A stretch of 64,000 nt of DNA from a virus. The notes under the pieces were generated by a model. The model was not told where the DNA came from and ran no database searches. It saw nothing but the letters and a program-made list of their open reading frames with translations. The stretch is from the IMG/VR virus record IMGVR_UViG_3300020383_000006, positions 64,001 through 128,000 of that record. One strand, written 5' to 3'. The position numbers were made by a program, and so were the translations under genes. Position 1 is the first letter of the stretch. Every line of letters starts with the position of its first letter. Shown here in pieces: positions 914 through 47,505 of this stretch.

Positions 914-1867
914 ATGTCTGAAGTTCATAAAGGTATGCAGAATAAAACAATTATCAAGGTTATCAAAAATAAAATTGATGATTGGGTTAAATCCGTTTTA
1001 GATCATGGCGAAGAATATGACCTTAATGAAGAAGCAAAATCAGTAACAAAAGCAATTAAAAAAGATTGTATTGTTACAGGCGGTTCTATTGCTTCAATGA
1101 TAATGGGTGAAAAAATTAATGATTTTGACGTCTACTTAAGAACTAAAGAATCTGCATTATTGGTTGCTAATTTTTACGTAGACATCTTTAATAAGAAAAA
1201 CCAAGACCAACAAAAAGTAACAGTTAAAGAAGAAACTCTTTCTAACATTTTAGGGGAAGATGAAGAACGTGTTGTTATTTGGGTTGATAGTTCAGGTCAA
1301 GCTTCTGAAAGTTATTCCGAAGAACAGGAAGATATTCCTGAAATCGGTGCGGATATTGGATCTGAGGAAATTGAAGAAGAAGAGTTACGTTATCGTCCAG
1401 TTTTTTTATCTGAAAATGCCATCACTTTAAGCAACAAAATACAAATCGTAACAAGGTTTTATGGTGAACCCGACCAAATTCACCGGAACTATGATTTTGT
1501 GCATGCTATGTGCTATTACGACGCTGGTACAAATAAATTGGTCACTCCTGAAAAAGCATTACGTTCTATGCAATCAAGAACCCTTTATTACGAAGGGAGT
1601 CTATACCCTGTATGTTCACTTTTCCGTTGCCGTAAATTCATTAAACGGGGTTGGTCTATTTCAGCTGGTGAAATGCTTAAAATTGTTTTACAAATTAGTG
1701 AAATTGATTTAACGATTACTTCTATTTTACGGGAGCAGTTAACTGGTGTAGATGCTTTGTATTTCAACCAACTAATTTCCGCAATTAAACAAAAAGAAGC
1801 TCAAGGCGAAGCGATAGATAAAACCTATATCGTTACTGTAATAGACCGTATTTTTAATGACCTGTAA
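914..1867 (+). CDS. Pol-beta superfamily nucleotidyltransferase-like protein
   Basis: IVTGGSIAS...INDFDVYL matches the hG[GS]-x9-13-DhD signature; later YDFVH motif; SD GAGG. Confidence 0.65.
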   Translation: MSEVHKGMQNKTIIKVIKNKIDDWVKSVLDHGEEYDLNEEAKSVTKAIKKDCIVTGGSIASMIMGEKINDFDVYLRTKESALLVANFYVDIFNKKNQDQQKVTVKEETLSNILGEDEERVVIWVDSSGQASESYSEEQEDIPEIGADIGSEEIEEEELRYRPVFLSENAITLSNKIQIVTRFYGEPDQIHRNYDFVHAMCYYDAGTNKLVTPEKALRSMQSRTLYYEGSLYPVCSLFRCRKFIKRGWSISAGEMLKIVLQISEIDLTITSILREQLTGVDALYFNQLISAIKQKEAQGEAIDKTYIVTVIDRIFNDL

Positions 1868-1878
1868 GGATTTATATT

Positions 1879-2523
1879 ATGAAAATTATTGACCATACGC
1901 TAGATTTTGAAACAATGGGTACTGACCCAGATAGCATAGTTTTAAGCTGTGCTATCACTTTCCATAGACGTGGTAAAGTCGACTACACGTTCCAAGAGCT
2001 AGTAGAGAAAACCCATTATTTTAAGTTTGATATAGAACACCAACAAAAAGAGTTCGGTCGAACGTATAGTGAACGCACGTTAGAGTGGTGGCAAAAACAA
2101 GACCCTGAAGTTAGAAAGGCACAATTTACCCCATCTGAGTATGATTTTACGTTGGGTGAATTTATAACAGCATATTACAATTTGTTGGAACAATATGGAT
2201 CAAATAACCTTTCTATGGCTTTTTGTCGTGGTCAGTCATTTGATTTCCCTATTCTTAAAAATATCCATCAGTCGGTTAGAAATAGTAATCCTGATTTCTT
2301 CCCTACTCCATTTTGGCAACAAAGTGATATCCGCTCTATTTTGCGTGGCTTAATGATGGATTTAACAGTAAGAAATATTCCTATGCCTGATGGAACATTA
2401 AAAGGGTTTAAAAAACATAATCCAATTCACGATAATGCTAAAGCTATTATGGAAATGCAATGGGCGTATCGGTATGCTGATGGTGAGGAACTTCCAGAAT
2501 ATATTGACCCTGAATCCTTGTAG
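1879..2523 (+). CDS. dexA: DEDDh 3'-5' exonuclease, T4 DexA-like
   Basis: ExoI LDFETMG, ExoII RGQSFDFPIL, ExoIII HNPIHD; TLEWWQKQ motif. Confidence 0.8.
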   Translation: MKIIDHTLDFETMGTDPDSIVLSCAITFHRRGKVDYTFQELVEKTHYFKFDIEHQQKEFGRTYSERTLEWWQKQDPEVRKAQFTPSEYDFTLGEFITAYYNLLEQYGSNNLSMAFCRGQSFDFPILKNIHQSVRNSNPDFFPTPFWQQSDIRSILRGLMMDLTVRNIPMPDGTLKGFKKHNPIHDNAKAIMEMQWAYRYADGEELPEYIDPESL

Positions 2524-2545
2524 GGTTTAAAAATAATCTAAATAG

Positions 2546-2576
2546 AGGTAGGATATTGTTCCTACCTTTTTATTTT
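2546..2576 (+). terminator. Intrinsic terminator-like hairpin after dexA
   Basis: AGGTAGGA-tattgt-TCCTACCT followed by a T-run. Confidence 0.65.
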
Positions 2577-2588
2577 AGGAGAAATACG

Positions 2589-2831
2589 ATGCTAAATCTA
2601 AACGAATTTAAACAAATAGAAACTGACGTAGCTATGCTTGAAGAAAAAATTGATGAGTCAGTCTATGAAAAAAGTGAGACATTTGAACTGACTGAAAATG
2701 AAAACCTAACAACTACATTTAAACTGTACGACGCTGATGACAATTGTATCTTTGAAACTGAAGTTGAAGATTACTACACCGCCGAACAATACCTAAAAGA
2801 AAGATTTGACATCAGTGGTGAAGAAGAATAA
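2589..2831 (+). CDS. Small acidic hypothetical protein
   Basis: ATG 2589 is preceded by AGGAG, so it is preferred over the track start at 2556, which lies inside the hairpin. Confidence 0.6.
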   Translation: MLNLNEFKQIETDVAMLEEKIDESVYEKSETFELTENENLTTTFKLYDADDNCIFETEVEDYYTAEQYLKERFDISGEEE

Positions 2832-2838
2832 AATAGAT

Positions 2839-2867
2839 TTTTAATTTTCTTTTTAATCTATTATAAT
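2839..2867 (+). promoter_or_regulatory. Putative promoter of the modification cluster (TTTTAA-17nt-TATAAT)
   Basis: Perfect TATAAT at 2862-2867. The same TTT(T/A)AA-17-TAnnnT geometry occurs before gp43 and gp41. Confidence 0.5.
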
Positions 2868-2897
2868 AAATCCTTCTTAAGAATTTCGGAGTTTTAA

Positions 2898-4289
2898 ATG
2901 GACAAATATATTGATGGTGTGAGAGTCATCGTAGCTGAAGAACACCATGATTGTGAACACCTACTTGGTAAATTTTTAGATGAAAGTCATTATGACGTTT
3001 TAATAGACGAAGATTGTGATTTTTACGCGCCACCAGAAAACACTTTATTCGGTGTAGAAGAAACCTCAGAAGAAAAATGTATTTTCAAACTGCGCAAAGG
3101 TTTTTTCAGTATGGAAGAACAACGTGGCGCATATGAAGGGTTACGTGATGCGGCAGTTGCTTCTAACAACCGTGGAATTGCTGCTGGCGACCGTACTGAA
3201 ATGACGGGCAACCGAGTTTTCGTTACTGAACGTCATTTACGTATTTTAGACATGATGATGAATCCTGCTGGTGCTGTTATTGATGATGCCTTTACGGTAG
3301 CTGATGCGGTAGCTGATAAGTCTTGGGGTAATCCTAATTCTAAAAAAGGTGAAGCATGGATTATTCGAGTTGTTGGGGATAACTTTGATTTTGAAAAATG
3401 GGCTGAAGAAACAGTAAAATTATCCCCCAGTGAAATGAATAAGAAAGCACGTGAACTTTCAAAAGGCGTTTCTACTACTACATACGCAAATGAAGTTCAT
3501 TCCGGTATTGCTGGTTGGTTTGACCGTTACCCAAGAATTCCTTTTGGGCGAGCAACTTCTTACACAGCAAACAACCCTGAAAAATTTGCTAAATCTTACC
3601 CTTTTCTACAAAAACTTTCGGATGGATTTTCTAAATTTTTGCCTGAACGTTTCGTTAAACAAAAGAAATGTGCCGACTCATTAGACCCTGCTTTTGTCGT
3701 ACCTGAAACGCCGTTTACTACCCTGACGGTTAATAAAACGTTCCGTACAGCAGCTCACAGGGACGCTGGTGACCTGAAAAAAGGGTTCTCTAACCTTAGC
3801 GTGATCACTAATAAAGAAAAGTGTTACACTGGCGGTTATTTAGTTTTACCTGAGTTCCGTGTAGCTGTAAACATTCGTCCTGGTGACTTATTACTTATTA
3901 ATAACCATGACGGGGTTCATGGTAATACGCCTATTGAAATTGATGATGATGGTGAGCGCGTTTCAGTTGTTTGTTATTTCCGTGAAAATATGTTAGAATT
4001 AGGTTCTAAACCATATGAAGATGCAAGAGCCAAATTTGTTGAACAAAGAAGAAATGATAAAAACCACCCAGAGTGGCGTCCATTGTGGAACGGTATTAGT
4101 CCAGGAATGTTTGAGACTGATGAATGGTACAAATTTCTTTACAACGAAATTGGTGAAGAAGAATTATTAAAATACCATCCAAGGGCAAAAGGTAGCATTG
4201 AAGAATTTGAATCTTGTACTAAAAGAAAGGTACATGGGGATGATGTTTGTAATGGATGTAACAAAATATGTAATGGTCGAGGTGAATAA
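2898..4289 (+). CDS. TET/JBP-family 2-oxoglutarate/Fe(II) dioxygenase (base hydroxylase)
   Basis: FTTLTVNKTFRTAAHRDAGD (HxD), distal HGNT His, and RVSVVCYFRE (2OG-binding Arg), plus SGIAGWFDRYPRIP. Next gene is a glycosyltransferase. Confidence 0.85.
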   Translation: MDKYIDGVRVIVAEEHHDCEHLLGKFLDESHYDVLIDEDCDFYAPPENTLFGVEETSEEKCIFKLRKGFFSMEEQRGAYEGLRDAAVASNNRGIAAGDRTEMTGNRVFVTERHLRILDMMMNPAGAVIDDAFTVADAVADKSWGNPNSKKGEAWIIRVVGDNFDFEKWAEETVKLSPSEMNKKARELSKGVSTTTYANEVHSGIAGWFDRYPRIPFGRATSYTANNPEKFAKSYPFLQKLSDGFSKFLPERFVKQKKCADSLDPAFVVPETPFTTLTVNKTFRTAAHRDAGDLKKGFSNLSVITNKEKCYTGGYLVLPEFRVAVNIRPGDLLLINNHDGVHGNTPIEIDDDGERVSVVCYFRENMLELGSKPYEDARAKFVEQRRNDKNHPEWRPLWNGISPGMFETDEWYKFLYNEIGEEELLKYHPRAKGSIEEFESCTKRKVHGDDVCNGCNKICNGRGE

Positions 4290-5113
4290 TGTTAATTTGT
4301 ATACCAACGTATAAGCGCGAAGAAAACCAAAAATGTTATGAACGTATGCCCGACGAAATTAAACGTCGGGTTTTATTGGCTACTCATTCTGATGAAGTAG
4401 AAAACCTTAAAAAAGCTAACCCAGAAGCAAATGTTGTGGATATTGGAGTCACTGACGGCATCGCTGACGTGAGACAAAGAATACTTAACTACGCAAAATC
4501 ACAAAATGAAGAAAAAGTTTTTATAATGGATGATTCTTGCACATTCAAGAAAAGAGTTAAAATGAAACTTACTGAAATGGGCGCTCAAGATTGGGAAGAA
4601 ATGATTGAAAGGGTTTCAGAAAGGCTAGATGAATACCCTATGGTCGGAATTTCTGACCAAGCCGGAAATAACCGCGTTGAGAAACCGGAATTAGAAAACC
4701 AACGTTCATACAGTTGTTATGGTATCAACGTAGAATTTTTTAAAGAAAACGGCATAAGATTTGATGCTATGTATCAAGAAGATAATGATATCAAGTTTTA
4801 TGAAGATTTTTACGTTATACTGAAATTATTGACTTCAGGGTTTAAGAACTTGGTTATCTATGAATACGCCTTTTCACACGCACACGGCAAAAAGGGCGGT
4901 AACAGTGTATTAAGAAGTAATAATACACATAAAAAATCAATAGATTCTTTGAAAACGTTTTTTCCTAAGTTTGTTGATGTCGTAAAGAAGGAAAACCCAT
5001 CTTGGAAAGCAGGTTTAAATGATGAAGAAAACTTTAGATGGGACGTGAAAATTTCTTGGAAAAAGGCTTTTGAATATGGACAATCTAAAGTAGAAAGCGT
5101 TTCTTTATTTTGA
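4289..5113 (+). CDS. GT-A fold glycosyltransferase, TET/JBP-associated type
   Basis: ICIPTYKR N-terminus, FIMDDS (DxD-like), YEDF, KKGGNS motifs; TAATG overlap with the TET stop codon. Confidence 0.8.
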   Translation: MLICIPTYKREENQKCYERMPDEIKRRVLLATHSDEVENLKKANPEANVVDIGVTDGIADVRQRILNYAKSQNEEKVFIMDDSCTFKKRVKMKLTEMGAQDWEEMIERVSERLDEYPMVGISDQAGNNRVEKPELENQRSYSCYGINVEFFKENGIRFDAMYQEDNDIKFYEDFYVILKLLTSGFKNLVIYEYAFSHAHGKKGGNSVLRSNNTHKKSIDSLKTFFPKFVDVVKKENPSWKAGLNDEENFRWDVKISWKKAFEYGQSKVESVSLF

Positions 5114-5123
5114 GGAAGACTTT

Positions 5124-6173
5124 ATGAAATATGAGAAAAGGTTAGTCGTTGATTTTGATGACACACTATTTTTTACTAAAAACCGTGATTGGGAAAATGC
5201 GGAACCCAATTTAGAATTAATAGAAAAGATTAACGGTCTTTATGAAGAAGGCTGGAGAGTAGATATTTTTACTGCTAGAGGTTCAATATCTTGTGACAGT
5301 AGGGAACAAGCAAAGGAAAAATACCTTAATGGTATGTTGCGGTTGCTTGAAAAATATAACGTTATGTATCATGAAATATCTTTTGAAAAACCTTTGGCCG
5401 CTTATTACATTGATGACAAATCTATCACGCCAGAAGAATTTATTAAGAAAGATTTTAAGCAATTACAAGGCGGTCTATCAGGTAGTGATATTTATACTGA
5501 TGGTGAACAAGTCCATAAAACAGATGATAACAGCCATAATGTTGTTGAATGGTATAACGCCACGAATAATATATTAAATACGCCTGAGATACATAGGGTT
5601 GTTGGTAACACTGTTTCTATGGAGTATATTGAACATAATGAATCTTTTTTTGAATCTAATGTTTATTTTGCGTTAGCGTTAATCCAAGAGTCATTAGATT
5701 CAATGAGAAAATTGAAACCGATAAACAATTTAAGGTTTTCTGATTATAAGAAAAGAATTTTAACTAACCACCTTAAACCAGCTTTAGAAAATGATTCACT
5801 AAGTAAACAACAAAAAAAGGTTTTGTTGATAACATATGAAAATTTATCCCTTATTGACGTAAATCCATCATTTTCCCATGGCGATTTCGGTATAAAAAAT
5901 ATGCTTTTTAACGAAGACAAGAAGCTTTATTTGATAGACCCAATCCCACAAACATTCGGTTCTTTAGAAATAGATGTTGCGAAATTCATAGCTTCTATGT
6001 ACATAAATGAATATAATGAGCAACTAATTAATACCTCATTAAAAACCCTTTGTACATTCAATGGTCTAGAGCTGAGTTTAATTAATAAACTAATCAGTTC
6101 AGAATTAATGAGAGTCGTGAAATACCACCCTGACCCTGAAAAGATCGTGGAGCTTATATCGAATGTTTATTGA
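5124..6173 (+). CDS. Fusion: HAD phosphatase (capsule-biosynthesis type) + APH/choline-kinase-like phosphotransferase
   Basis: HAD motifs VDFDDTL, FTARG, KP..YIDD; kinase motifs HGDFGIKN and LIDP. Confidence 0.75.
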   Translation: MKYEKRLVVDFDDTLFFTKNRDWENAEPNLELIEKINGLYEEGWRVDIFTARGSISCDSREQAKEKYLNGMLRLLEKYNVMYHEISFEKPLAAYYIDDKSITPEEFIKKDFKQLQGGLSGSDIYTDGEQVHKTDDNSHNVVEWYNATNNILNTPEIHRVVGNTVSMEYIEHNESFFESNVYFALALIQESLDSMRKLKPINNLRFSDYKKRILTNHLKPALENDSLSKQQKKVLLITYENLSLIDVNPSFSHGDFGIKNMLFNEDKKLYLIDPIPQTFGSLEIDVAKFIASMYINEYNEQLINTSLKTLCTFNGLELSLINKLISSELMRVVKYHPDPEKIVELISNVY

Positions 6174-6627
6174 TAGGAAATCGTTGTCTGAGAAATTAAA
6201 TAAAGAGATGGATGAGGTTAAGATAGGTTTTACTTGTTCCACCTTTGATTTATTTCATGCTGGACACGTTGTTATGTTAGAAGAAGCCAAAACTATGTGT
6301 GATTACCTTATAGTGGGGCTTCTTTCTGACCCGACAATAGATAGACCAGATTCTAAAAATAAACCTATACAAAGTATGTTTGAGCGATATATTCAAGTTT
6401 CTTCTTGTAAATATGTCGACGAAGTTATACCTTTCCAAACTGAACAAGAAATTATCGATATAATTTTAACCATACAACCTGATGTGAGGGTTGTTGGGGA
6501 AGAATATAAAGGTGAAAATTTTACTGGAAACGATTTGTGTTTCGTACATTTTAATAAAAGAAGACACTCTTTTTCTTCAACTGATTTAAGAAAAAGAGTT
6601 TTTGAAAATGAAAATAAAGGTGAATAA
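6163..6627 (+). CDS. HxGH nucleotidyltransferase (TagD glycerol-3-phosphate cytidylyltransferase / RfaE domain II family)
   Basis: FTCSTFDLFHAGH, YLIVGL, C-terminal RRHSFSSTDLR. Confidence 0.85.
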   Translation: MFIDRKSLSEKLNKEMDEVKIGFTCSTFDLFHAGHVVMLEEAKTMCDYLIVGLLSDPTIDRPDSKNKPIQSMFERYIQVSSCKYVDEVIPFQTEQEIIDIILTIQPDVRVVGEEYKGENFTGNDLCFVHFNKRRHSFSSTDLRKRVFENENKGE

Positions 6628-6631
6628 AACT

Positions 6632-7336
6632 ATGTCATTAGAAATTACATTTCCACTGTATAATTATTTTTTAAAGCAAGTGATTGATTGGAACCATGCA
6701 GCAAATAACCCACCAGCAACAAAAATGGGCGCTAGAAAACTTCAAATTATGCGCCAAGCTGAATATACTCGCTCTGAAGTTCAAGAAACCATGGACGCAG
6801 TATTTGTTCATGATTTAAAAGAAATTGTTGATGGTGTTTGTGACGTTTTCGTTACGGCTGGTTATATGGCACATTTGCAATCACATAAACCCGAAGATGC
6901 TGGATTGATGTCCTTCAAACAAGGGTTTTTACCTAAAACCCAAATGGAACTTATTCCTCAGTTGTTTGCACTAAGGGAAGATTGTAACGTATTTGGTAAC
7001 ATTACTCACGAAAAAGTACAAATGTTACTGTTATCATTGGTCTCAGTTTTTCGAACTACGTTTGACATTGAAAAACCCGTTTCTAAAGTAGAAAGTTTTG
7101 TACAAGAAGTATTGGATTCTAATAATTCTAAGTTTATACCTTTGCAAGAGTATGAGAAATATAAAGTCCTTCATAATGAATACGTTAATAAGAAGTATGA
7201 AGGTAAATTTGAAAACATTGTTCCTGTATACACTAAACTTGGAACCCGTGACGTCGTAGTTTTCCGAGCGGATAATGGCGAAGGTAAAATTCTTAAACCT
7301 TCAACGTTCCGTGAACCGAAATTCGACCTTTCATAA
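6632..7336 (+). CDS. MazG-like all-alpha NTP pyrophosphohydrolase
   Basis: EVQE...EIVDGVCD metal-binding pattern, SNNSK, GKILKP. Start 6632 follows SD AAGGTG; the track start is 6602. Confidence 0.7.
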   Translation: MSLEITFPLYNYFLKQVIDWNHAANNPPATKMGARKLQIMRQAEYTRSEVQETMDAVFVHDLKEIVDGVCDVFVTAGYMAHLQSHKPEDAGLMSFKQGFLPKTQMELIPQLFALREDCNVFGNITHEKVQMLLLSLVSVFRTTFDIEKPVSKVESFVQEVLDSNNSKFIPLQEYEKYKVLHNEYVNKKYEGKFENIVPVYTKLGTRDVVVFRADNGEGKILKPSTFREPKFDLS

Positions 7337-7343
7337 ATTCCAC

Positions 7344-7388
7344 TTTAAATAAGAAATGAAACGGGGTATATTATTGCCCCGTTCCTTT
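7344..7388 (+). promoter_or_regulatory. Hairpin plus putative promoter upstream of gp43
   Basis: TTTAAA(7344)-17nt-TATATT(7367); stem AACGGGGTA/TGCCCCGTT at 7360-7383. Confidence 0.45.
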
Positions 7389-7412: not shown

Positions 7413-9980
7413 ATGATATATACCTATTACCGCCAGCTTGGTAATAAAATCCTACTTAGATATATTGATGAAGAAGGTGAAACCCATTCCAAAAAAATTG
7501 ATTTTTATAAACCGAAACTATACTTGAGAAGCGAAAAAGAATGTTCCCATCGTTCAATTTATGGGGAACCGTTGCGTGAAGTCGAATTTCCTGACATTAA
7601 TGCGGCAAAACAATTTGCTGAAGAACACAAGTATATTCCTGAAATCGGTTTGAACGGCAATTCAAATTATGCAAACCAATTCATTATTGAAGTTTTTGAT
7701 GGAAAAACGCCTAAGTTTGATATCAATACCTTTAATATCGGTATGTTTGATATCGAGGTTGATGCTGATGAATTTCCTTTACCTGAAGAAGCCAAATATG
7801 TGGTTAATGCTTTCTCACTCTACTCTAGTAAGGAAAACAAGTTCTATGCTAGGGCTATACCTCATAAACCTGAAGATAATTGGTCTAAGGATGCTTCAGA
7901 AGAGGATGAAATCAAAAAATTAGATATTGATTTCAAACTTTGTCAAGATGAAACTGAATTGTTGATGGAATTTTTGACGTTGGTTTCTTCGGGAGATTAC
8001 CATATTATTTCAGGATGGAACTCACAAGGCTTTGACGTTCCTTACTTAGTAAACCGTTGCAGTAAAATCGTCGGTGAAAAAACCACAAGGAAAATGCTTT
8101 CCCCGTTTAATAAAATTGATGAACGTGAAAGTATTGATAACTACGGCAAAAAGAAAGTCAAATATATTTTGAGCGGTTTGCCTCACCTTGATTTCATGGA
8201 TTTATATAAGAAACACGTTTTTACACCAAGGGAATCATATAAACTTGATTTCATTGCTTCCGAAGAATTGGGTGAAAATAAAATTGAATATGAAGATACG
8301 CTTCATGATTTGTATCGTGAAAACTTTCAGAAGTTTGTAGATTACAATATTCAAGATAGTAATCTAATTAAGCGACTAGATGACAAACTCGGATTATTTC
8401 AATTGACGCTTTCTTTGGCTTATATTTCTTTATCTAATTTTGAAGATACAATGGGTACGGTTAAAATTTGGGAACAATTAGTTGCTAAATTTTTGTATCA
8501 AAAAGGGAATAAAGTTCCGTTATTCAGGAAAGAAGCGATAACTGATGAACGTGATTTTGAAGGCGCTTTCGTTAAAGAACCTGTTCCTGGGTTTTATAAT
8601 TGGATAGTGAGCTTTGACTTAAATTCACTTTACCCGCATATCGAACAACAATGGAATATCGGTCCAGAAACGCTAGTTCCTTATGACCAATTACCTAGTG
8701 AATTAAAAGAAATCGTTGATAACTATACGTTCAATGATATTTTAGACATGAAAGTTAACATAAAACCGTTATTAGAAAAACATAATTTAACAATGGCGGC
8801 AAACTTTGAATTTTACAAGATTGATGAAATGTCATTCTTTTCTGAGATTAAACGTGAGTTGTATAGTGAACGTAAAGTACATAAAAAAGCAATGCTTGGT
8901 TATGAACAGAAAAAGGTAGATGCTGAATCAAGTTCAGAACAATTCAAGTATGAATCACTTGAATCTTCAGAAAATTCTATGCAAATGGGATTAAAAATCT
9001 TGCTCAACGGAGGCTACGGAGCCCTTGGCAATACGTCTTTTCTTTACTATAAGGTTGAGAATGCTGAAGCGATTACGTTATCCGGTCAATACGTTAACAA
9101 GTATGTTTCTCAGAAAATTGAAACGTTCTTACAAAAATTATTTTCTTCAGAAAAACGTTATTGGGTTTACTCTGATACGGATTCAGCGTATCTTACTATT
9201 GAAGATTTTGTTAATACGTTAGATGGTTCTAAAGGGGTTGAGTATCTAGTAGAACAAACTGATCGTTTCTGTGAAGATGTTATTTCACCTGAAATTAAAA
9301 AGTTGTGTGATGAAATTTGCGAGTACATGAATTGTTATGAACAACGCATGTTCTGGGAACGTGAAGTTATTTCTAATGTAGCTGTTTGGGTTGCTAAGAA
9401 AAAATATGTAATGTCGGTTCTTGATTCAGAAGGAACGAAATATTACAAAGAGCCCAAAATTAAAATCATGGGTATGGAGTCCGTAAAATCTTCAACCCCA
9501 GGATGGGCTAGGGTGGCTCTTAAAAGTTGCTATAAATCCTGTTTAGGGAAGGATAAGAGTGATTTTTATTCATTGTTGAGTGATATCACTGATTCTTATT
9601 ACAATAAACAACCAAATGAAATTGCTATTCCAACCAAAGTAAACGGATTAGAAAAATACCATGATCCTGAAAAAATATTCGCTAAGGGTGCACAGGCTCA
9701 TGTTAAAGCGGCTCTGTTCCATAATTACGTTTTGGAACAACAAGAATATAAACATATCGGCAAAATTAATAGCGGAGATAGTATTAAATACGTTATACTG
9801 AAAGAACCGAACCCAACTGGATTCCCTGTTATCGGTTTTGATACTTACCTTCCTAAAGAATTTAATGTTGAGGATTATATTGATAAAGACACTATGTTTG
9901 AAAAATCATTTATGTCTGCATTAAGAATATTCCTAAATGCTATTAAATGGGAAGAAGAAGAACAAGTCAGTTTATTTTAA
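7413..9980 (+). CDS. 43: Family B DNA polymerase, T4 gp43-like
   Basis: FDIEV, GWNSQGFDVPY, YNIQD exonuclease motifs; SFDLNSLYP, KILLNGGYGALG, YSDTDS, KKKY, MGMESVKSSTP. Confidence 0.97.
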   Translation: MIYTYYRQLGNKILLRYIDEEGETHSKKIDFYKPKLYLRSEKECSHRSIYGEPLREVEFPDINAAKQFAEEHKYIPEIGLNGNSNYANQFIIEVFDGKTPKFDINTFNIGMFDIEVDADEFPLPEEAKYVVNAFSLYSSKENKFYARAIPHKPEDNWSKDASEEDEIKKLDIDFKLCQDETELLMEFLTLVSSGDYHIISGWNSQGFDVPYLVNRCSKIVGEKTTRKMLSPFNKIDERESIDNYGKKKVKYILSGLPHLDFMDLYKKHVFTPRESYKLDFIASEELGENKIEYEDTLHDLYRENFQKFVDYNIQDSNLIKRLDDKLGLFQLTLSLAYISLSNFEDTMGTVKIWEQLVAKFLYQKGNKVPLFRKEAITDERDFEGAFVKEPVPGFYNWIVSFDLNSLYPHIEQQWNIGPETLVPYDQLPSELKEIVDNYTFNDILDMKVNIKPLLEKHNLTMAANFEFYKIDEMSFFSEIKRELYSERKVHKKAMLGYEQKKVDAESSSEQFKYESLESSENSMQMGLKILLNGGYGALGNTSFLYYKVENAEAITLSGQYVNKYVSQKIETFLQKLFSSEKRYWVYSDTDSAYLTIEDFVNTLDGSKGVEYLVEQTDRFCEDVISPEIKKLCDEICEYMNCYEQRMFWEREVISNVAVWVAKKKYVMSVLDSEGTKYYKEPKIKIMGMESVKSSTPGWARVALKSCYKSCLGKDKSDFYSLLSDITDSYYNKQPNEIAIPTKVNGLEKYHDPEKIFAKGAQAHVKAALFHNYVLEQQEYKHIGKINSGDSIKYVILKEPNPTGFPVIGFDTYLPKEFNVEDYIDKDTMFEKSFMSALRIFLNAIKWEEEEQVSLF

Positions 9981-10555: not shown

Positions 10556-11515
10556 ATGTCTCTAGCTGAAAAATTTGCTAAAAACTCAAAATTGAAAGGT
10601 AGTGGAACGTTTTCTAAAACATTAGAAAAACCAGTGAAACTATATGACACTGGCGTACCAGCATTAAACCTTGCTTATAGCGGTGACCTATTTGGTGGAA
10701 CTAAATCAGGCGTTACTTGTATAGCAGGTAAATCAAAATCATTTAAAACGTTATTTGGGTTGATTGCTTGTAAAGCGTATATGGATGAACACCCTGACGC
10801 ATATATGTTATTTTATGATTCAGAAGGCGGTGCGTCGAAAGAATACTATGAACAAATTGGTATTGATACCGACCGAGTTATTTATCTACCTATCATGAAT
10901 ATTGAGGAACTAAAATTTGATTTAGTTCCTAAACTTGAAGAAATCAAAAAAGAACATGATGAAGCTAAAAAAGAAGAAGATAAACCAAGGTTCATCGTAT
11001 TCTGTGACTCAATCGGAAACTTAGCATCAATTAAAGAAGTAACTGATGCAATGAATGACAATTCAGCTACTGATATGGGTATCAGAGCTAAAACACTAAA
11101 AGCATTATTCCGTATCATGACACCTTATTTCAAGCGTTGTGAAATACAAATGATTGCTATTATGCACACGTATGATGAAATGGCTGCTATGGGTGCACCA
11201 AAACAAATTATGAGCGGTGGTTGTGTTACTGAAGGAACCCGTATTATGCTTGAAAACGGGGATTTTGTAGAAATACAAAATATCCAAGAAGGTGACATGG
11301 TAATGTCAAAAGAAGGTCCTAGAAAAGTAGACCATATTTGGGATCCTGAAACTCTTGAAGAAGGAAACCCAGAATGCTTGCGTTTAACTTTCGATGATGG
11401 ATATCAAGTAGAATGTTCCGAGAAACATAGATTCTTAGTTAAAAATGAAAACGGTGATGAAGAATGGGTTATGGCTAAGGATTTAACTGAAGGAATGGAC
11501 TTAATTTCTATTTAA
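10556..11515 (+). CDS. uvsX: UvsX recombinase N-terminal part (222 aa) fused to split-intein N-fragment (97 aa)
   Basis: DTGVPALNLAYSG, Walker A AGKSKSFKT, FYDSEGG, DSIGNLAS. After MSGG comes intein block A CVTEGTRIML and block B ECSEKHRF, then stop. Confidence 0.93.
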   Translation: MSLAEKFAKNSKLKGSGTFSKTLEKPVKLYDTGVPALNLAYSGDLFGGTKSGVTCIAGKSKSFKTLFGLIACKAYMDEHPDAYMLFYDSEGGASKEYYEQIGIDTDRVIYLPIMNIEELKFDLVPKLEEIKKEHDEAKKEEDKPRFIVFCDSIGNLASIKEVTDAMNDNSATDMGIRAKTLKALFRIMTPYFKRCEIQMIAIMHTYDEMAAMGAPKQIMSGGCVTEGTRIMLENGDFVEIQNIQEGDMVMSKEGPRKVDHIWDPETLEEGNPECLRLTFDDGYQVECSEKHRFLVKNENGDEEWVMAKDLTEGMDLISI

Positions 11516-11522
11516 TTTGAAT

Positions 11523-11583
11523 TTTAAACCTCTAGGATAATAAATACTTTATGCGAAGAGTACAAAAGTCCTAGAGGTTTAAA
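11523..11583 (+). promoter_or_regulatory. 15-bp inverted repeat sequestering the endonuclease RBS, with late promoter AATAAATA in the loop
   Basis: TTTAAACCTCTAGGA (11523-11537) pairs with TCCTAGAGGTTTAAA (11569-11583), which contains GAGG and the A of ATG; AATAAATA at 11539-11546. Confidence 0.8.
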
Positions 11584-12746
11584 TGAATATAGTTTATAAA
11601 ATAACTTTTTTAGATAGAAAAGAAAATAACATATACCCATATATCTATATAGGTTCTAAATCAAATTGTAATTTTGTTGATGGTAAAATTATAGATAGAA
11701 ACGGTAATAGTTATTATGGAAGTTCAACTTGGCCAAATTATTATGAAATAGTAAAAAAGGGTAATCTGAAAATTGAATTATTATTTCATTCAGAAAATTA
11801 TAATGAATGTTTAATGAAAGAAAAAGAATTACATTTAAAAGAAGATGTTGTAGCGAACCCTGAATATTTTAATAAGACAATAGCTTCTATAAGTAATTAC
11901 TCTGACCCTAGTTATGCAACTTATAAACATACATTATATGGTAAAATAGTTAGGTTGCCTAGAAACCATCCGTTAGTCGAAAACGGTACTTATGTTGGGG
12001 TTACAAAAGGGGATACAGTTAAACATTCAGGCAATGGTTCTAGGTTTGGAATGTTTAATTCTTTTTATGGAAAAACGCATAGTGAACAAACTAAACAAAA
12101 ATTAAGAGAACATAATTTAGGCAAAGTTCATTCTGAAGAATCAAGAAGAAAAATGTCTAAATCTAGGAAAGGTAAAAAGAAGACTAAAGAACACAAAGAA
12201 AAGATAGGTAGGAAAGGTATGGTTAATTTTGTTAACGTAAAAACAAAAGAAACCATTAGGGTGTATAGGGAAGAATTTGAGTTGAGGGATGACAAAAAAG
12301 ATTGGTTGACCCAAGCAAAATATAATTCTATCTATAACAAACCTGAAGAAATTATTTGTGAGTATTGTGGAATGAGCTTATCTCCTGGTAATTATTCTCG
12401 GTTTCATGGTAAAAATTGTTCTAAAGTAAAAGTCAGAGAATATAACCCATTCAAAAAATTACTGGAAGGTAAAGGGAAAAACAAAACTATTGAGGAGGTT
12501 CTTTATTTCTTTGATGAGATTGTAAATTTTTTAAAAGAAAATAAAAAGCCTGAAAATATGAGTAGTAAAAGGTATTCATTAGAAGTTTTAATACCTTTTA
12601 CAAAAAATAAATTCGGTGATGTAGAACCCTTTTACGCTGTGATAAAAAGAGTATATAATTCATTTCGAGAAGGGAAAATTGGTGAAGAGACATTTTCATA
12701 TTTCTATAAATGGAAACAAAAGGTAGATTTTAATGCTATTAAGTAA
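11583..12746 (+). CDS. GIY-YIG homing endonuclease (Seg-like) with NUMOD3 repeats and zinc finger
   Basis: IVY...YIYIGSK, YYGSS, EYFNK; FYGKTHSEQTKQKL / GKVHSEESRRKMS; CEYCG...HGKNC. Visibly more AT-rich than its flanks. Confidence 0.88.
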   Translation: MNIVYKITFLDRKENNIYPYIYIGSKSNCNFVDGKIIDRNGNSYYGSSTWPNYYEIVKKGNLKIELLFHSENYNECLMKEKELHLKEDVVANPEYFNKTIASISNYSDPSYATYKHTLYGKIVRLPRNHPLVENGTYVGVTKGDTVKHSGNGSRFGMFNSFYGKTHSEQTKQKLREHNLGKVHSEESRRKMSKSRKGKKKTKEHKEKIGRKGMVNFVNVKTKETIRVYREEFELRDDKKDWLTQAKYNSIYNKPEEIICEYCGMSLSPGNYSRFHGKNCSKVKVREYNPFKKLLEGKGKNKTIEEVLYFFDEIVNFLKENKKPENMSSKRYSLEVLIPFTKNKFGDVEPFYAVIKRVYNSFREGKIGEETFSYFYKWKQKVDFNAIK

Positions 12747-13293
12747 AATTGAAAAAATTGGTAAGCGTCCTGTTTTCGACATATCCGTTAATGGTTCACA
12801 AAATTATGTTTTAGAGAACGGGGTTATAAGTCATAATACCGGACCACTATATTCCTCAGACCAAGTTTTCATCGTTCGCAAGCGCCAAATCAAAGAAGGC
12901 AAAGAAATTATTGGTTGGGAATTTATTCTTGATATTGAAAAATCAAGAACGATTCGCGAAAAATCATCAATCCCATTTGAAGTGAAATACGGGGAAGGAT
13001 TAAATCGTTTTTCTGCTCTACTTGACTTAGCTATTGCTTCGGGTCACGTGATTAAACCTAAGATGGGTTGGTATTCTCGTGCTAACGTAGAAGATGATAA
13101 AAATTGGCGTAGAAAAGAAACTTCTTCAGATGAATTTTGGGATCCTATTCTTAATGACCAAACGTTTGTCGATGCCGTTAAAAATATGTATCGTTTGGAT
13201 GGTGGCGACCCAATTCTACAAAAGAAACTTGATAATTTAGTTCAAGATGAAGATTTTGACCCTGAAACAGGTGAAATCTTCGATAAAGAATAA
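12733..13293 (+). CDS. uvsX: Split-intein C-fragment (35 aa) fused to UvsX C-terminal part (151 aa)
   Basis: VFDISV (block F), NYVLENGVISHN|T (block G), then TGPLYSSDQVFIVRKRQIKEG, EKSRTIREKS, KPKMGWY. Has its own SD (AAGGT). Confidence 0.93.
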   Translation: MLLSKIEKIGKRPVFDISVNGSQNYVLENGVISHNTGPLYSSDQVFIVRKRQIKEGKEIIGWEFILDIEKSRTIREKSSIPFEVKYGEGLNRFSALLDLAIASGHVIKPKMGWYSRANVEDDKNWRRKETSSDEFWDPILNDQTFVDAVKNMYRLDGGDPILQKKLDNLVQDEDFDPETGEIFDKE

Positions 13294-38106: not shown

Positions 38107-39357
38107 TTAAAATGATACAATAAATTTGTATTCTTCGGTTTTTTCTTCTGACCTCGTAACGGGTTTTATATTTTTAAACCACAACAAGTTACCAGAGTTT
38201 TTCAAGTAATTACCTTTATTTATAACTTCTTCCGTTAACGGTAAATGTTCAGTATTAATTTTGTTAATGATTTCAGTGGTAAAACCTTCACCGTGTATTT
38301 TTGTATCAAAACCGCTTAATATGGAGTCGGTGTAAAACATAGAGTTATCTTTATCAACCATTAATACATTAATTTCTTCACCGCTAGAGGTACGTAATTT
38401 TTGACCTCTTTTAATTTTTCTTATACAGGTTACTTTTACAACACAACCTTTTTTATTAGATAATCCTTTAGATACTACTCCAATTCTTCTATACGTTATA
38501 CCAGTCGGCAACCCTTCTTTAGATCCTTCCAATTTTATATCAAGTAATTTGTATATTGCGTGTAATTCTTCTTTAGGGTTATAACCATGCCCACCTACTG
38601 GAGAAACAACAGGACGCATCACCGTATTACATGAGCATTCGTTAGATTGAACCTCAACGAACGCTCTTCTATACCCCTTCCCTGGATTTATAATTTTTAC
38701 TTTTTCAATTTTACCATCTTTAATTATTGCTTTTGCTTCGCAACCGTAACCATCACCTTTTATGATAATTTTTGGTGATGTTTTAAAACAATTATTTTCA
38801 TTACCGGAAACTATATCTATTCTATCTATAGAACCATCATTTTTCCATTTTTCTTTCATTTGTACAGTATCGTAACAAGGAATATAACCAGTACCAGAAA
38901 AATTTCTTCTGTCCTCTTTATTAACGGAATACATATAAACCCAAACGTATCCGTCTTGACAAGAAAAAGGTTTTTCTAAATTACCTCTCGGCATAACAGT
39001 AGAAACTTCATAATTGTTATTATCAAGACATTTATAGACACCCCACTCTTCATTAATAACGTAAAAGTCTACAGGTTTATCTAAATCAACTTCATCATCG
39101 TATTGAGAATAAACTTTCCCTGAAATCCAAGTATTATCTTCTATGACCGTATGTAAATCTTCGGAATTGATTCTTTTAAGACAAAGAACATCATTTAAAA
39201 CATCAATGTGAGTTTTAACTTCGTTCTTTGCTTCAGGCGGTTCTTGTTCATTTTCCCAAGGACTAGAATTCCCTAAAAAGAAATAATAAGGAACACAATT
39301 AAGTGATTTTTTAAATATGTCACTTGCCGCAATTTTCAGGGAATTTGTTGGTTTCAT
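38107..39357 (-). CDS. 8: Baseplate wedge subunit gp8-like
   Basis: PWENEQEPP, VYKCLDN, DGYVWVYMY, SPVGGHG, RSEEKTEEYKFIVSF. Confidence 0.85.
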   Translation of the reverse strand: MKPTNSLKIAASDIFKKSLNCVPYYFFLGNSSPWENEQEPPEAKNEVKTHIDVLNDVLCLKRINSEDLHTVIEDNTWISGKVYSQYDDEVDLDKPVDFYVINEEWGVYKCLDNNNYEVSTVMPRGNLEKPFSCQDGYVWVYMYSVNKEDRRNFSGTGYIPCYDTVQMKEKWKNDGSIDRIDIVSGNENNCFKTSPKIIIKGDGYGCEAKAIIKDGKIEKVKIINPGKGYRRAFVEVQSNECSCNTVMRPVVSPVGGHGYNPKEELHAIYKLLDIKLEGSKEGLPTGITYRRIGVVSKGLSNKKGCVVKVTCIRKIKRGQKLRTSSGEEINVLMVDKDNSMFYTDSILSGFDTKIHGEGFTTEIINKINTEHLPLTEEVINKGNYLKNSGNLLWFKNIKPVTRSEEKTEEYKFIVSF

Positions 39358-39398
39358 TTTATTGCCTATGCAATTGATTAAAAATTATACTTATACCA

Positions 39399-39590
39399 TT
39401 ATTTATATATTCCAATTTTTACCTTATGTTCTATTAACCGTTCTTCAATTCTTTTTACATCTTCTTTGTTGGTCACTATATCTTTTTGGGCTATTGCTAC
39501 ATCTGTCTCAATTGACCTAATGGCCAGACTATTCTCTTTTATAGTTTCTTTTTCCCAGGCATTTAATCCATCTGACACAACAAGCTCCAA
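39399..39590 (-). CDS. Small coiled-coil hypothetical protein
   Basis: About 60 aa; probable GTG start after GGAG; TTAAATA upstream. Confidence 0.5.
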   Translation of the reverse strand: MELVVSDGLNAWEKETIKENSLAIRSIETDVAIAQKDIVTNKEDVKRIEERLIEHKVKIGIYK

Positions 39591-39727
39591 CTGAATATAT
39601 TAATTATTAAAAGTATTTAATCAGAAGAGTATATATAAATAAAGAGATACCCCCAGCTGACCCTAAAAATACTTTCCTAGCCTATTCACTTTCTTCATTC
39701 TCTCATTCACCGGATACTCGTTTGTTC

Positions 39728-40135
39728 TCAAACATTTTCAAGGTCCGGTTTTTCGGGATACGTAAAGTTAAACGGGTAACCAGGCTGATCGGTGATATCT
39801 AGCAAAGATTTTCTGTAATTCTTGATCTCTTCTTTTAAATCTCCACTAACACTTTCCCACCTCAATGGGTTGCTTGCTACCTTATCTATTTCCTGCAGTA
39901 GCCGTGCTCTTTTCATCCTTGCCTCGGCATCCTTTTCTTCATAGGAGGGCTGATACTCGGCATATCCTTGTACTTTAACTAATTCATACACCTCTCTTCC
40001 CAGTTCCTCTGAGTCATCTGGTGATGCTGTAAAAGGAATCCACCCAAAACCTGGGTGGTTCAATTGAAGATCAATAGTGCCGTCTTTATTCTCTATGCAG
40101 TTTTTTATAGTGTAACTCATCTTTACCTCACGCAA
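39728..40135 (-). CDS. Tail fibre assembly chaperone (Tfa-like)
   Basis: GWIPFTASPDD, R.KR..LL, YRKSLLDITDQPGYP..P; directly after a fibre gene. Confidence 0.8.
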   Translation of the reverse strand: MREVKMSYTIKNCIENKDGTIDLQLNHPGFGWIPFTASPDDSEELGREVYELVKVQGYAEYQPSYEEKDAEARMKRARLLQEIDKVASNPLRWESVSGDLKEEIKNYRKSLLDITDQPGYPFNFTYPEKPDLENV

Positions 40136-42263
40136 TTCTTACAAATAATGTAGTACTTTCCGAAGCATTCCAGTCGGCATTCGCCCACCCCATACACCGC
40201 CATGTGCCTGGCAAACTGATTTTATCCCTTGCTTCAAAAGAGTTAACCGATGAAGCGTCCAGTTTGCTTCCGCTTATTGTATCGCCAGGTCTATATGTTG
40301 GTCCTCCGTCCACATACGCAACGTGTGCTAGCATATATGACCCTACAGCATTAGCATTTGGTTTTCTTGCTGAATATCTTTCATCTGATTCAGACTTACT
40401 GTAGCACGATACGTTTCTAACACTAGATAGACCTACATCTGATTTAGTCGTGCCGCTTCTAATAGAAGAAACCGATGTAGTAGCCGCATCAGATAACCCT
40501 AGATTACTTCTTGCCGTTGACTTATCAGGTAAATCGGCTAGGTTACTTGATTCATTTAAATACCGAGCATCATAATGTGCTCTAGAATAGTTATCTACAA
40601 AACTTAGACCTACATCAGATTTAGTAGTTGCTTGTGCTCTTAGTCCAGAATATGTACCAGAGGTATTGGCTTTGGAAGATGGATTGAAATTACCCGCATG
40701 CCAAACCTTGCTACCGTCCGTGTATAATCCATCGGATTTCATTTCTATGGGGTGGTAAGAAGACCCGTCATACCAGTTCTCCCTGTAAAATGAGTACCCG
40801 CTTGAGCTGTTACGGAATTTGTGAATGGTAGCTGTCGTACCATCATCACGAGCGTCCCAATTTACATGTGCAGAAGTAGCAGAATCATAAAGCCTGAATC
40901 TAGTGGATATCGTTTGCGATCCTGATGTTCTTATAAACCCACTTGAGCTAATACCGTCCAACTTATCAGCATCAACTGCTTTACCTCCAGCAGCCAAATA
41001 ACGACTGTCATAATGTGCTCTTGAGTAGTTATCCACCGAACCTAAACCCACATCGGATTTAGTTGTTCCCTTAGCACGTAAACTAGCAGTTCCTGTTAAT
41101 CCAGAACCACTTCCAGAAAACGATGTTGCTGTTATACTCCCACCAAAATTGGCATTGCCATTAGTATCTATTAGTGTGGTTACTCGATTTAGCCCACTAC
41201 TTAGATTATCACTAGAAGCATAAACTTTAACACCATTTTCACCAGCTATATGAACAATTTCACCACCGAAACCGCCCATGCTACTCATAGATTCACCAGC
41301 ACCAATCTTTATCTCGGTGCCATTGCCAACATATTGAGTACTGGATACTTGATTAAAATCTACATTACTATTTGTGTTTAAACTCTGATTAGCAAAGTTA
41401 ACCATTGATGTAGTAATAGTAGGTAATCTAGAACTACTTAAAGTACCACTAGAAATATTGCCAGCATTTGTAGCGTCTACATTAGGAACATTACCTAAAC
41501 CAACATCAGCTTTTGTAGTACCTGTAGCTCTTAATGAAGCTGTTCCAGTCAAACCAGAACCATTTCCTGAAATGTTTCCTGATACGTTTAAATCGCCATC
41601 AGTTTTAATGGAACCCTTAACATATAAACCGTTGGTAGGTACTTTAGATGAATCACTATATGAACTTGAAACAAGTAATTCATTTGTATTGATGGGTAAA
41701 GCTCCATTACCTTTTAGAAAACTTAACCTATCGTTACTCCCTTGAATAGCTCCAGATAAATATAAATTATCTCCATGATAATTACCTGTAACATATAAAC
41801 TTTTTGTGCTTCCTTCATATTCAATACCAGAATGGGTGTATATTCTATTGTCATCTATAACTGTGCCTATAGAATATCTACCACTAAAAGTTGTACCACC
41901 TTTATAAAAAGCACCGACTTGTGTAGCTGTTATACTTGTTAATCCTGAACCGTTTCCTGAAATTGTACCTGAGACTTCTAAATCAGTTGATACTTCAACT
42001 TTAGAGTTATCGTTATAAACATTAATAGCTCTACGCAAAGTACCATCATAAGAAAACCATGTGGATACTGAATTACCATTACCAAAAGCAAACCCATTAG
42101 TTCCATTAGGGTCAGTATATAATGCATTACCTTCTAAATTTACTGCGTCCCAAGAGTTTTCTTTTATTTGTACATTTTCACTGAATTTAGCTTTTAACCC
42201 TACAGATAGCTCTCCTGTAACAGTTAAATCACCATAGTTTATTGAATCAAATAATTTTGCCAT
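40128..42263 (-). CDS. Tail fibre protein C (711 aa)
   Basis: Repeated TTKSDVGL..V.N, ADKLDG, KVWHAGNF, NLADLPDKSTARSNLGL; tip PGTWRCMG...LFVRIA. Confidence 0.85.
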   Translation of the reverse strand: MAKLFDSINYGDLTVTGELSVGLKAKFSENVQIKENSWDAVNLEGNALYTDPNGTNGFAFGNGNSVSTWFSYDGTLRRAINVYNDNSKVEVSTDLEVSGTISGNGSGLTSITATQVGAFYKGGTTFSGRYSIGTVIDDNRIYTHSGIEYEGSTKSLYVTGNYHGDNLYLSGAIQGSNDRLSFLKGNGALPINTNELLVSSSYSDSSKVPTNGLYVKGSIKTDGDLNVSGNISGNGSGLTGTASLRATGTTKADVGLGNVPNVDATNAGNISSGTLSSSRLPTITTSMVNFANQSLNTNSNVDFNQVSSTQYVGNGTEIKIGAGESMSSMGGFGGEIVHIAGENGVKVYASSDNLSSGLNRVTTLIDTNGNANFGGSITATSFSGSGSGLTGTASLRAKGTTKSDVGLGSVDNYSRAHYDSRYLAAGGKAVDADKLDGISSSGFIRTSGSQTISTRFRLYDSATSAHVNWDARDDGTTATIHKFRNSSSGYSFYRENWYDGSSYHPIEMKSDGLYTDGSKVWHAGNFNPSSKANTSGTYSGLRAQATTKSDVGLSFVDNYSRAHYDARYLNESSNLADLPDKSTARSNLGLSDAATTSVSSIRSGTTKSDVGLSSVRNVSCYSKSESDERYSARKPNANAVGSYMLAHVAYVDGGPTYRPGDTISGSKLDASSVNSFEARDKISLPGTWRCMGWANADWNASESTTLFVRIA

Positions 42264-47088: not shown

Positions 47089-47505
47089 TTAACTTGTACT
47101 TGATTCTTCTATAATATATTGTTCTTCTGCTAAATAATCTTCTTCGTCAGTTCCACCGACCGTAGGATCATAATCAGGTTGTGGTGGGTTATCCCTTCTT
47201 TTAGCAAAAAACAAATATGCTGAATGAACTGCGGCATATATTTCCGCGTATGTCATGTCCTTACCAATATATTTACCTGTTGATGGATCGACGATTCTTA
47301 TAGTTAAATCCATTGTTTCAGGGGAAGATTCAACCTCAATCGATCCACTATCTTGGTTCATTACTGAACCGTCTTGTAGGTTTACACGTTTTTCTTCAAC
47401 AAATTTGACTTTTGGGTATGTTCCGAACTCATTTTCAATAACGATGCGTTTTGTTCTTACCCATGCTTCACCTGATATTGTTGTTTGTTTGTAATTCTCG
47501 GACAT
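47089..47505 (-). CDS. Fibre-associated hypothetical protein
   Basis: 138-aa ORF embedded in the fibre array. Confidence 0.65.
   Translation of the reverse strand: MSENYKQTTISGEAWVRTKRIVIENEFGTYPKVKFVEEKRVNLQDGSVMNQDSGSIEVESSPETMDLTIRIVDPSTGKYIGKDMTYAEIYAAVHSAYLFFAKRRDNPPQPDYDPTVGGTDEEDYLAEEQYIIEESSTS

Follow-up and report, generated by a model that had tools for sequence, protein, structure and literature searches.

We analysed a 64,000-nucleotide stretch of viral DNA (the window), comprising positions 64001–128000 of the 145.5-kb IMG/VR virus record IMGVR_UViG_3300020383_000006, which is rated ~90% complete. The record encodes the markers of a T4-like phage: a family-B DNA polymerase (phrog_262), UvsX, a DnaB-like helicase, a gp45-type clamp (G000 42557–43273, − strand), and Dda-like and UvsW helicases. 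Directly upstream of the polymerase gene PolB (the gp43 homologue; 7413–9980, + strand), five open reading frames (ORFs) lie on the same strand at 2898–4289, 4289–5113, 5124–6173, 6163–6627 and 6602–7336, the first two overlapping by 1 nt and the third and fourth by 11 nt. A sequence-only reading of the window had described these overlapping or abutting genes as a DNA-hypermodification cassette consisting of a TET/JBP dioxygenase, a GT-A glycosyltransferase (GT), a HAD-kinase fusion, an HxGH nucleotidyltransferase (NTase) and a MazG-like pyrophosphatase. We recovered all five ORFs at exactly those coordinates, and the evidence below supports the cassette and its first four enzyme assignments. 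The functional unit is nevertheless four genes (~2806–6592), not five: the TET, the TET-associated glycosyltransferase (TAGT), the HAD-APH fusion and the NTase. We consider it reasonably likely that this island is a post-replicative thymine hypermodification system of a marine T4-like phage, equipped with a self-made sugar donor.

Independent gene calls also recover the five-gene set on at least six other contigs from several marine samples. Counting identical copies of the genes gives at least 11 contigs, whose marine samples are several and include Tara Oceans. A DNA-level search of cultured phages with the island returned only short matches, all in the NTase gene.

Enzymes of the island

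The first gene (2898–4289, + strand) encodes a long-form TET/JBP dioxygenase of 463 amino acids (aa). PF12851 matches it at 81.2 bits against a gathering cut-off of 34.9, and phrog_24024 covers its full length. Residues H287-x-D289, H341 and R354 are invariant across 27 homologues and correspond to the HxD...H iron triad and a candidate 2-oxoglutarate-binding Arg, the latter assigned by position and not by structure. Foldseek searches with an AlphaFold model (pLDDT 81) returned CcTet, NgTET1 and TET2 at E values of 3e-8 to 1e-6. The long TET family defined by phrog_24024 spans 77 IMG/VR loci and extends to the cultured T4-like phages DLP6, Cr30 and C48C1, where its members are mis-annotated as 'SNF2'. 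A maximum-likelihood tree places the window TET as sister to the TET of locus L038 (support 100/98). The idea that the N-terminal 200 aa form a fused ParB-like domain was rejected, as the segment had no Pfam match and a whole-protein fold search returned TET-type matches only.

The second gene (4289–5113, + strand; phrog_842) encodes TAGT, a GT-A enzyme of 274 aa with the C-terminus ...VSLF. PF20691 scores 46 bits on this protein against a cut-off of 27.5. Residues R10, D81-D82 and E172-D173-F174 are invariant, preserving intact the R...DD...ED(F/Y) motif of GT-A enzymes of the base J glycosyltransferase (JGT) type, the R...DD...EDF form of which was given by Pyle et al. (bioRxiv 10.1101/2023.12.21.572611). 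A scan of IMG/VR with peptide patterns found no TAGT, and relatives were gathered through TET loci and the protein database; the same TAGT protein is present on a 218-kb contig.

The third gene (5124–6173, + strand) fuses a HAD phosphatase (aa 1–115) to an APH/choline-kinase-like kinase (aa ~115–349). The HAD domain (aa 5–114) is TIGR01689-like and matches PDB entries 1xpj (E 4e-16) and 9iqw. The kinase domain scores below its Pfam cut-off (18.9 versus 22.4) and matches a choline kinase profile at E 0.004. Both halves keep every catalytic motif unchanged across 16 homologues: D10-F-D12-D-T14, T50 and D97-D98 in the HAD domain, and G117-x-S-G120, K132 (VHKT), H252-G-D254...N259 and D272 (IDP) in the kinase. 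We predict that the fusion acts as an anomeric sugar-phosphate kinase and omega-phosphatase.

The fourth gene (6163–6627, + strand) encodes the 154-aa NTase, in which the HxGH motif reads HAGH and PF01467 scores 60.4 bits against a cut-off of 21. Among curated families, TIGR02199 (rfaE domain II, or HldE domain II) matches it best, at 85.6 bits and so below the equivalog cut-off of 181.5, and its closest solved relatives in the PDB are ECT and TagD. The predicted activity is that of a sugar-1-phosphate nucleotidylyltransferase.

The HAD-APH and HxGH NTase genes also occur as a pair in 32 other IMG/VR loci of other T4-like phages, with 50–54% identity for HAD-APH and 70–77% for the NTase. In the loci examined (L028 and L032), the pair's neighbours are a C5-methyltransferase (C5-MTase), GT-B enzymes, a ThyA homologue and a dCMP deaminase. 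A 305-aa ORF between the two genes in L028 was considered as a hidden TET, and hhalign found no relation.

Gene 5 and the exchange slot

Gene 5 (6609–7336, + strand) probably starts at the ATG at 6609 or 6635. No Pfam family matched it, and its PHROG match is phrog_671 (PHROG 671, 'nucleotide pyrophosphohydrolase'). VIA-align placed its structure model (pLDDT 93) closest to 2yay (Z 11.9), 5myd (Z 11.3) and 1w2y (Z 10.7), which are dimeric all-alpha dUTPases of Leishmania, Campylobacter and staphylococcal phages; the next match scored 6.8. A Z below ~13 calls for caution with helical proteins; here the top three are one family and stand well clear of the others. MazG folds reached Z 5.5–5.8, with HisE at a similar level (~5.7), and profile matches to HisE and MazG were weak (E 0.1–0.5). 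The label 'MazG-like' in the sequence-only reading thus named the right superfamily and probably the wrong family, with structure pointing to a dimeric-dUTPase-like all-alpha nucleoside triphosphate pyrophosphatase. No trimeric dUTPase was found in the genome.

Nor does gene 5 belong to the cassette in which it had been counted, being 98% identical in a sibling phage with another island and adjoining PolB in a relative with no island. The sibling, Tara Oceans contig L122, is 97.8–98.4% identical to the window by blastn from position 6592 on, through gene 5, PolB and a split uvsX, and shows no similarity to the window to the left of 6592, which marks the right border of the exchangeable island. 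In the island slot L122 carries an amino-acid:DNA transferase (AADT, PF18724), a myo-inositol-phosphate-synthase-like protein, a 136-aa ORF and a P-loop nucleotide kinase (PF18751). A 410-aa ORF of L122 that had been considered as the sibling's TET has no similarity to it and is the AADT. The relative with no island, L118 (PolB 54% identical), runs from an exonuclease through small ORFs to the gene-5 homologue and PolB, the modification genes being absent. In L116 (4214–9568; PolB 63% identical and also ending in VSLF), the same slot holds a TAGT, an NAD-dependent sugar epimerase/dehydratase, a UDP-glucose/GDP-mannose dehydrogenase and a GT4-like GT, followed by the gene-5 homologue, a Dam methylase and PolB, with no recognisable TET. 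Gene-5 homologues accompany other islands in L116, L038 and L122. Comparison of L122, L118 and L116 therefore assigns gene 5 to the backbone and indicates that the four-gene island is exchanged as a block between near-identical phages. This gives a rule: the slot between exonuclease and PolB is an exchange site, and phages that are nearly the same elsewhere differ there in their DNA chemistry, which makes the slot a natural experiment on how phages escape restriction and other defences that target nucleic acids.

Several further features lie around these genes. The region's best sigma-70-like promoter match, TTGACA-17-TAAAAT (11/12), is located at 2806–2834 on the + strand, 64 nt upstream of the TET start. 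It is a consensus match only, from a scan whose total match count was not above the shuffled expectation, and is a possible early promoter of the island. Between gene 5 and PolB there is a terminator-like hairpin (7360–7383, + strand), identified by pattern match only. On the left flank of the island, a 317-aa ORF at 914–1867 (phrog_4400; PF26128 Gad2 in relatives) is conserved together with the exonuclease gene. To the right, uvsX (10556–13293) is split into a 319-aa N-terminal and a 186-aa C-terminal part with a homing-endonuclease gene (387 aa, phrog_314/7504) between them, an arrangement likewise seen in the 98%-identical sibling L122. The sibling's PolB contains an insertion of ~1.6 kb (L122 5930–7558; ORFs of 515 and 400 aa) that is absent from the window (8927–9002) and is probably a mobile intron, intein or homing-endonuclease element. 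The myo-inositol-1-phosphate-synthase-like gene of L122 (1338–2612) sits beside the AADT and P-loop kinase genes, and in the Caulobacter phage Cr30 (L002 12290–13471) such a gene is annotated ~4 kb from the long TET; these genes may point to an inositol-derived DNA adduct.

Substrate base, sugar donor and polymerase-type tail

The genome encodes ThyX. Searches of all 145.5 kb found no C5-MTase (PF00145) and no ThyA-type enzyme (PF00303), with positive controls responding in each search. The sequence-only reading had proposed thymine as a plausible substrate on seeing no C5-MTase in the window, and the full record agrees. The same long TET is present in DLP6, Cr30 and C48C1, and a search of these three complete genomes likewise returned no C5-MTase, whereas L028 and L032 were positive in it. 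In L038, the TET is followed by a GATase, an amidoligase, a GNAT protein, an AADT (PF18724) and a P-loop kinase (PF18751), which are known thymine-hypermodification machinery (O'Toole et al., PNAS 2026, PMC13229309). The same study reports that phage 5mYOX enzymes with no neighbouring C5-MT oxidise T. The locus has the genomic context of phage thymine dioxygenases (5mYOX clade C), with no cognate C5-MTase and with thymine-tailoring enzymes or GTs as neighbours. No ParB-like activator (PF02195) was found in the genome, controls being positive, which sets it apart from the ParB-dependent 5mYOX subclass. The window TET is probably a thymine dioxygenase that makes 5-hydroxymethyluracil (5hmU) in DNA, and we regard thymine as a considerably better candidate than cytosine.

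The main competitor, which we regard as unlikely, is a cytosine route in which a C5-MTase from the unseen part of the genome or from the host would make 5-methylcytosine (5mC), TET would oxidise it to 5-hydroxymethylcytosine (5hmC) and TAGT would glycosylate the product. Such a route would follow the published phage MT/5mYOX/GT clusters; it finds precedent in the reconstituted phage GT clusters, all of which so far act on 5hmC, and in the TAGT family itself, which takes in the T-even beta-glucosyl-HMC-alpha-glucosyltransferases. The enzyme it depends on is nonetheless found in neither the 145.5 kb nor the three complete genomes with the same TET family, and C5-MT is present in only 6% of 5mYOX clusters (PMC13229309). 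Both the nearest TET relative and the 98%-identical sibling carry thymine-specific tailoring enzymes.

For the sugar donor, the sequence-only reading had likened the kinase, HAD and HxGH transferase to HldE/GmhB-type donor activation, and the domain evidence supports this. Of the non-standard donors then suggested, a nucleoside diphosphate (NDP)-sugar is the more likely and a CDP-polyol the less likely. No sugar-phosphate isomerase (PF01380 or PF13580) matched in the genome, so the host must supply the sugar phosphate from which the route starts. The HAD domain is 37–40% identical to stand-alone HAD proteins of the Ara-5hoC phages DLP3 and 92A1. Our best-supported guess for the sugar is heptose, with pentose second. 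DLP6-like relatives of the island carry a stand-alone HAD and an NTP_transferase-kinase protein adjoining TAGT and TET, mostly with an HxGH NTase. DLP6 itself (L001 4054–8344) has a TAGT 54% identical to that of the window, a HAD domain, a 563-aa NTP_transferase-kinase-like protein and a long TET annotated 'SNF2 DNA repair protein'. This cultured Stenotrophomonas phage would offer a culturable model for the chemistry.

We think it improbable that TAGT instead uses a host donor such as UDP-glucose and that HAD-APH and NTase serve something else, such as a second sugar added later or the modification of a host surface polysaccharide. DLP6 has its TAGT and TET with no HxGH NTase nearby, yet DLP6-like relatives carry the analogous HAD and NTP_transferase-kinase set, mostly with an HxGH NTase. 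The curated family closest to the HAD domain is that of a capsule-biosynthesis phosphatase, and JGT and the T-even relatives of TAGT are generally known to use UDP-glucose; against this, the HAD-APH/NTase pair recurs in the 32 other loci, those examined being DNA-modification neighbourhoods, its genes overlap with the GT operon and move together with it as a single block, and both were essential for the DNA sugar in the reconstituted contig 53 system described below. A CDP-alcohol donor of the glycerol, ribitol or ethanolamine-phosphate type, from which a phospho-alcohol would be attached to 5hmU, is very improbable: the solved structures most closely related to the NTase are ethanolamine-phosphate and glycerol-3-phosphate cytidylyltransferases and the kinase domain's best profile matches are choline kinases, but TAGT is a GT-A enzyme with a JGT-type motif and not a TagF, LicD or CDP-alcohol-type phosphotransferase, a Kennedy-type route has no role for a HAD phosphatase, the NTase scores best against heptose-1-phosphate adenylyltransferase among curated families, and the experimental precedent gave heptose.

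A further line of evidence comes from the protein C-termini. PolB ends in ...EEEEQVSLF and TAGT in ...SKVESVSLF, and in a survey of every genomic ORF of at least 50 aa, an [SD]LF end was otherwise confined, among sizeable ORFs, to the Dda/PIF1-like helicase and UvsW. These end in ISLF (G000 39306–40601, − strand) and VDLF (G000 47101–48681, − strand), respectively, and both lie outside the window. The [SD]LF ends of the helicases, PolB and TAGT may represent a common replisome-docking peptide.

In related loci PolB ends in (S/T)LEDFF(G/S), and a SLEDFF-type tail is present on 23 of 27 long TETs, on 8 of 9 TAGTs, and on the L028-type GT-B enzymes and C5-MTases. It is also found on the L032 alpha-GT-like protein, the L061 GT1, AADT in relatives and several unassigned ORFs beside TET. 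None of the 16 HAD-APH proteins, none of the 27 NTases and none of the AfhE-like proteins has it. The tail tracks the polymerase's own tail between lineages and divides DNA-acting from small-molecule enzymes, with the divergent L116 TAGT and the L094 C5-MTase, which have no polymerase-type tail, as a caveat. This gives a rule for T4-like phages: a polymerase-type C-terminal tail marks the cluster enzymes that act on DNA and not on small molecules. The acidic-hydrophobic C-termini of T4 gp43, gp55 and gp33 are known gp45 sliding-clamp-binding epitopes (PMC2988020). From the polymerase-type tails of TAGT and of the relatives' TETs, together with the T4 precedent, we infer that TAGT, and TET in most relatives, are tethered to the clamp or replisome. 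The shared tail also argues against a cell-surface role for TAGT. An interaction with gp45 has been reported for T4 alpha-GT, but experiments on C-terminally tagged protein did not reproduce it (bioRxiv 10.64898/2025.12.06.692756).

The window TET ends in a Cys tail, C-x11-C-x2-C-x3-C (residues 440–463; window 4215–4286). It shares with the L038 TET (1724–3094) a C-x11/12-C-x2-C-x3-C tail in place of the family's SLExFF tail, possibly a small zinc knuckle, while many other members of the long-TET family have a Cys-rich insertion near residue 60 instead.

Proposed mechanism and known systems

We propose the following pathway, each enzymatic step of which is deduced from homology and context in an uncultured phage known from sequence. 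ThyX would supply normal dTMP, and thymine-containing DNA would be replicated. The long-form TET/JBP enzyme would then hydroxylate thymine methyl groups in DNA to give 5hmU. In parallel, the APH-like kinase would phosphorylate a host sugar phosphate (heptose-7-phosphate or a pentose-5-phosphate such as arabinose-5-phosphate) at the anomeric carbon, the fused HAD domain would strip the distal phosphate, and the HxGH NTase would convert the sugar-1-phosphate into an NDP-sugar. TAGT would move the sugar onto the hydroxymethyl group to form a base-J-like glycosyl-5hmU, probably while riding the sliding clamp or replisome via its C-terminal VSLF, such that new DNA would be decorated near the fork. 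The dUTPase-like gene 5, as part of the replication backbone, would at most supply dUMP to ThyX. The purpose of the system is likely to be evasion of host nucleases, and the swapping of the island between near-identical phages fits an arms race.

Several observations weigh against parts of this proposal. With respect to the base, the genome is only ~90% complete and a C5-MTase could lie in the remaining ~10%; in the TET-family branch L094–L097 a long TET occurs with a 53%-identical TAGT and has a true C5-MTase (PF00145) 5 kb away; TET89, which has been characterised, accepts T as well as 5mC; and characterised phage T-dioxygenases are ~300 aa long, compared with the predicted 463-aa form here. 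With respect to the sugar, the searches found no sugar-phosphate isomerase gene, arabinose-pathway phosphatases are equally close relatives of the HAD domain, and the experimental heptose comes from the contig 53 module, which is likened to this one by architecture only. With respect to tethering, the window's own TET has no clamp-type tail, and clamp binding by the tail is deduced from the peptide sequences.

Each element of the system is known: phage TET/JBP enzymes with GTs, thymine dioxygenases, the HAD-APH and cytidylyltransferase module, and kinase-HAD-NTase activation. Phage TET/JBP enzymes accompanied by GTs were reportedly covered by Burke in 2021. The combination of a long ParB-independent TET that probably acts on thymine, a GT-A enzyme, a self-made donor and a T4-like replication module was not described in the literature searched. 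What is new is the pairing of the donor module with a GT-A enzyme and a dioxygenase that probably acts on T, the exchange of the island between 98%-identical phages, and the probable clamp-tethering tail. To our knowledge, glycosylated thymine derivatives made after replication are known in kinetoplastids and have not been shown natively in phage. If the four genes can be reconstituted as a set, they would provide a defined route to a new DNA base and new DNA-labelling enzymes.

The closest precedent for the donor module is contig 53, in which a HAD-APH bifunctional enzyme, a cytidylyltransferase and a GT were all essential for heptosyl-/diheptosyl-5hmC in E. coli (Pyle, Lund, O'Toole & Saleh, bioRxiv 10.1101/2023.12.21.572611; cited as Cell Rep 2024). 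The pathway logic had thus already been reconstituted. Both clusters combine a HAD-APH fusion, a cytidylyltransferase-like enzyme and a DNA GT, a likeness of architecture only. The contig 53 GT is a GT-B enzyme resembling T4 beta-GT, whereas the GT here is a GT-A/TAGT. Contig 53 makes its base, 5hmC, through a C5-MTase and a short 5mC dioxygenase; the window has a 463-aa dioxygenase in a genome with no C5-MTase, and its base is likely thymine.

Donor activation also resembles two other routes. In the UDP-arabinose pathway of AfhE/AfhF, the order kinase, HAD, nucleotidyltransferase was shown biochemically in HY126 and inferred for RB69 and DLP3 (PMC13326640). The Ara-5hoC route (RB69 gp51-55, DLP3 gp81-83) shares with ours this order of anomeric kinase, HAD and nucleotidyltransferase acting from a sugar-5-phosphate, and its HAD is homologous (37–40% identity). 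There, however, the kinase's fusion partner is a MurU-type NTP_transferase, the HAD is a separate protein and an arabinose-5-phosphate isomerase (SIS) is encoded, whereas here the fusion partner is the HAD, the transferase is of the HxGH type and there is no isomerase; the DLP6-like relatives of the island use the AfhE-like arrangement. The HldE/GmhB ADP-heptose pathway follows the same logic of kinase, HAD phosphatase and HxGH adenylyltransferase, and its rfaE domain II is the best curated match of the NTase. The NTase falls far below the equivalog cut-off for that family (85.6 versus 181.5 bits), however, and the kinase has an APH fold rather than a ribokinase fold.

The dioxygenase shares with phage thymine dioxygenases (5mYOX clades C1/C2, PMC13229309) the TET/JBP fold, the catalytic residues, the lack of a neighbouring C5-MTase, neighbours that are GTs or AADT/P-loop-kinase genes, and a predicted post-replicative action. 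Those enzymes are ~290–300 aa and stand-alone or ParB-dependent, whereas this family is ~450 aa and the genome has no ParB; most long-TET members have a polymerase-like tail where ParB might give DNA retention. In kinetoplastid base J synthesis (JBP1/JBP2 and JGT), as predicted here, a TET/JBP enzyme hydroxylates thymine in DNA, and the 5hmU so formed receives its sugar from a GT-A enzyme of the TAGT/JGT kind. Base J differs in using cellular UDP-glucose and in serving chromatin and transcription control, whereas the window encodes a dedicated donor pathway in a lytic phage.

As in T4 gp43, gp55 and gp33, the tail is a short acidic-hydrophobic stretch that closes the protein and recurs at the end of the phage's own polymerase. 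Unlike in T4, it is carried here by DNA-modifying enzymes (TAGT; in relatives TET, GT-B, C5-MTase and AADT), and its binding is predicted. We suggest, tentatively and at less than even odds, a base J analogue, heptosyl- or pentosyl-5hmU, built with a virus-made sugar and written in step with replication by enzymes (GT-A, GT-B, TET, C5-MTase, AADT) that bear the polymerase's clamp-binding tail. If true, this would be a phage counterpart of PCNA-tethered DNMT1.

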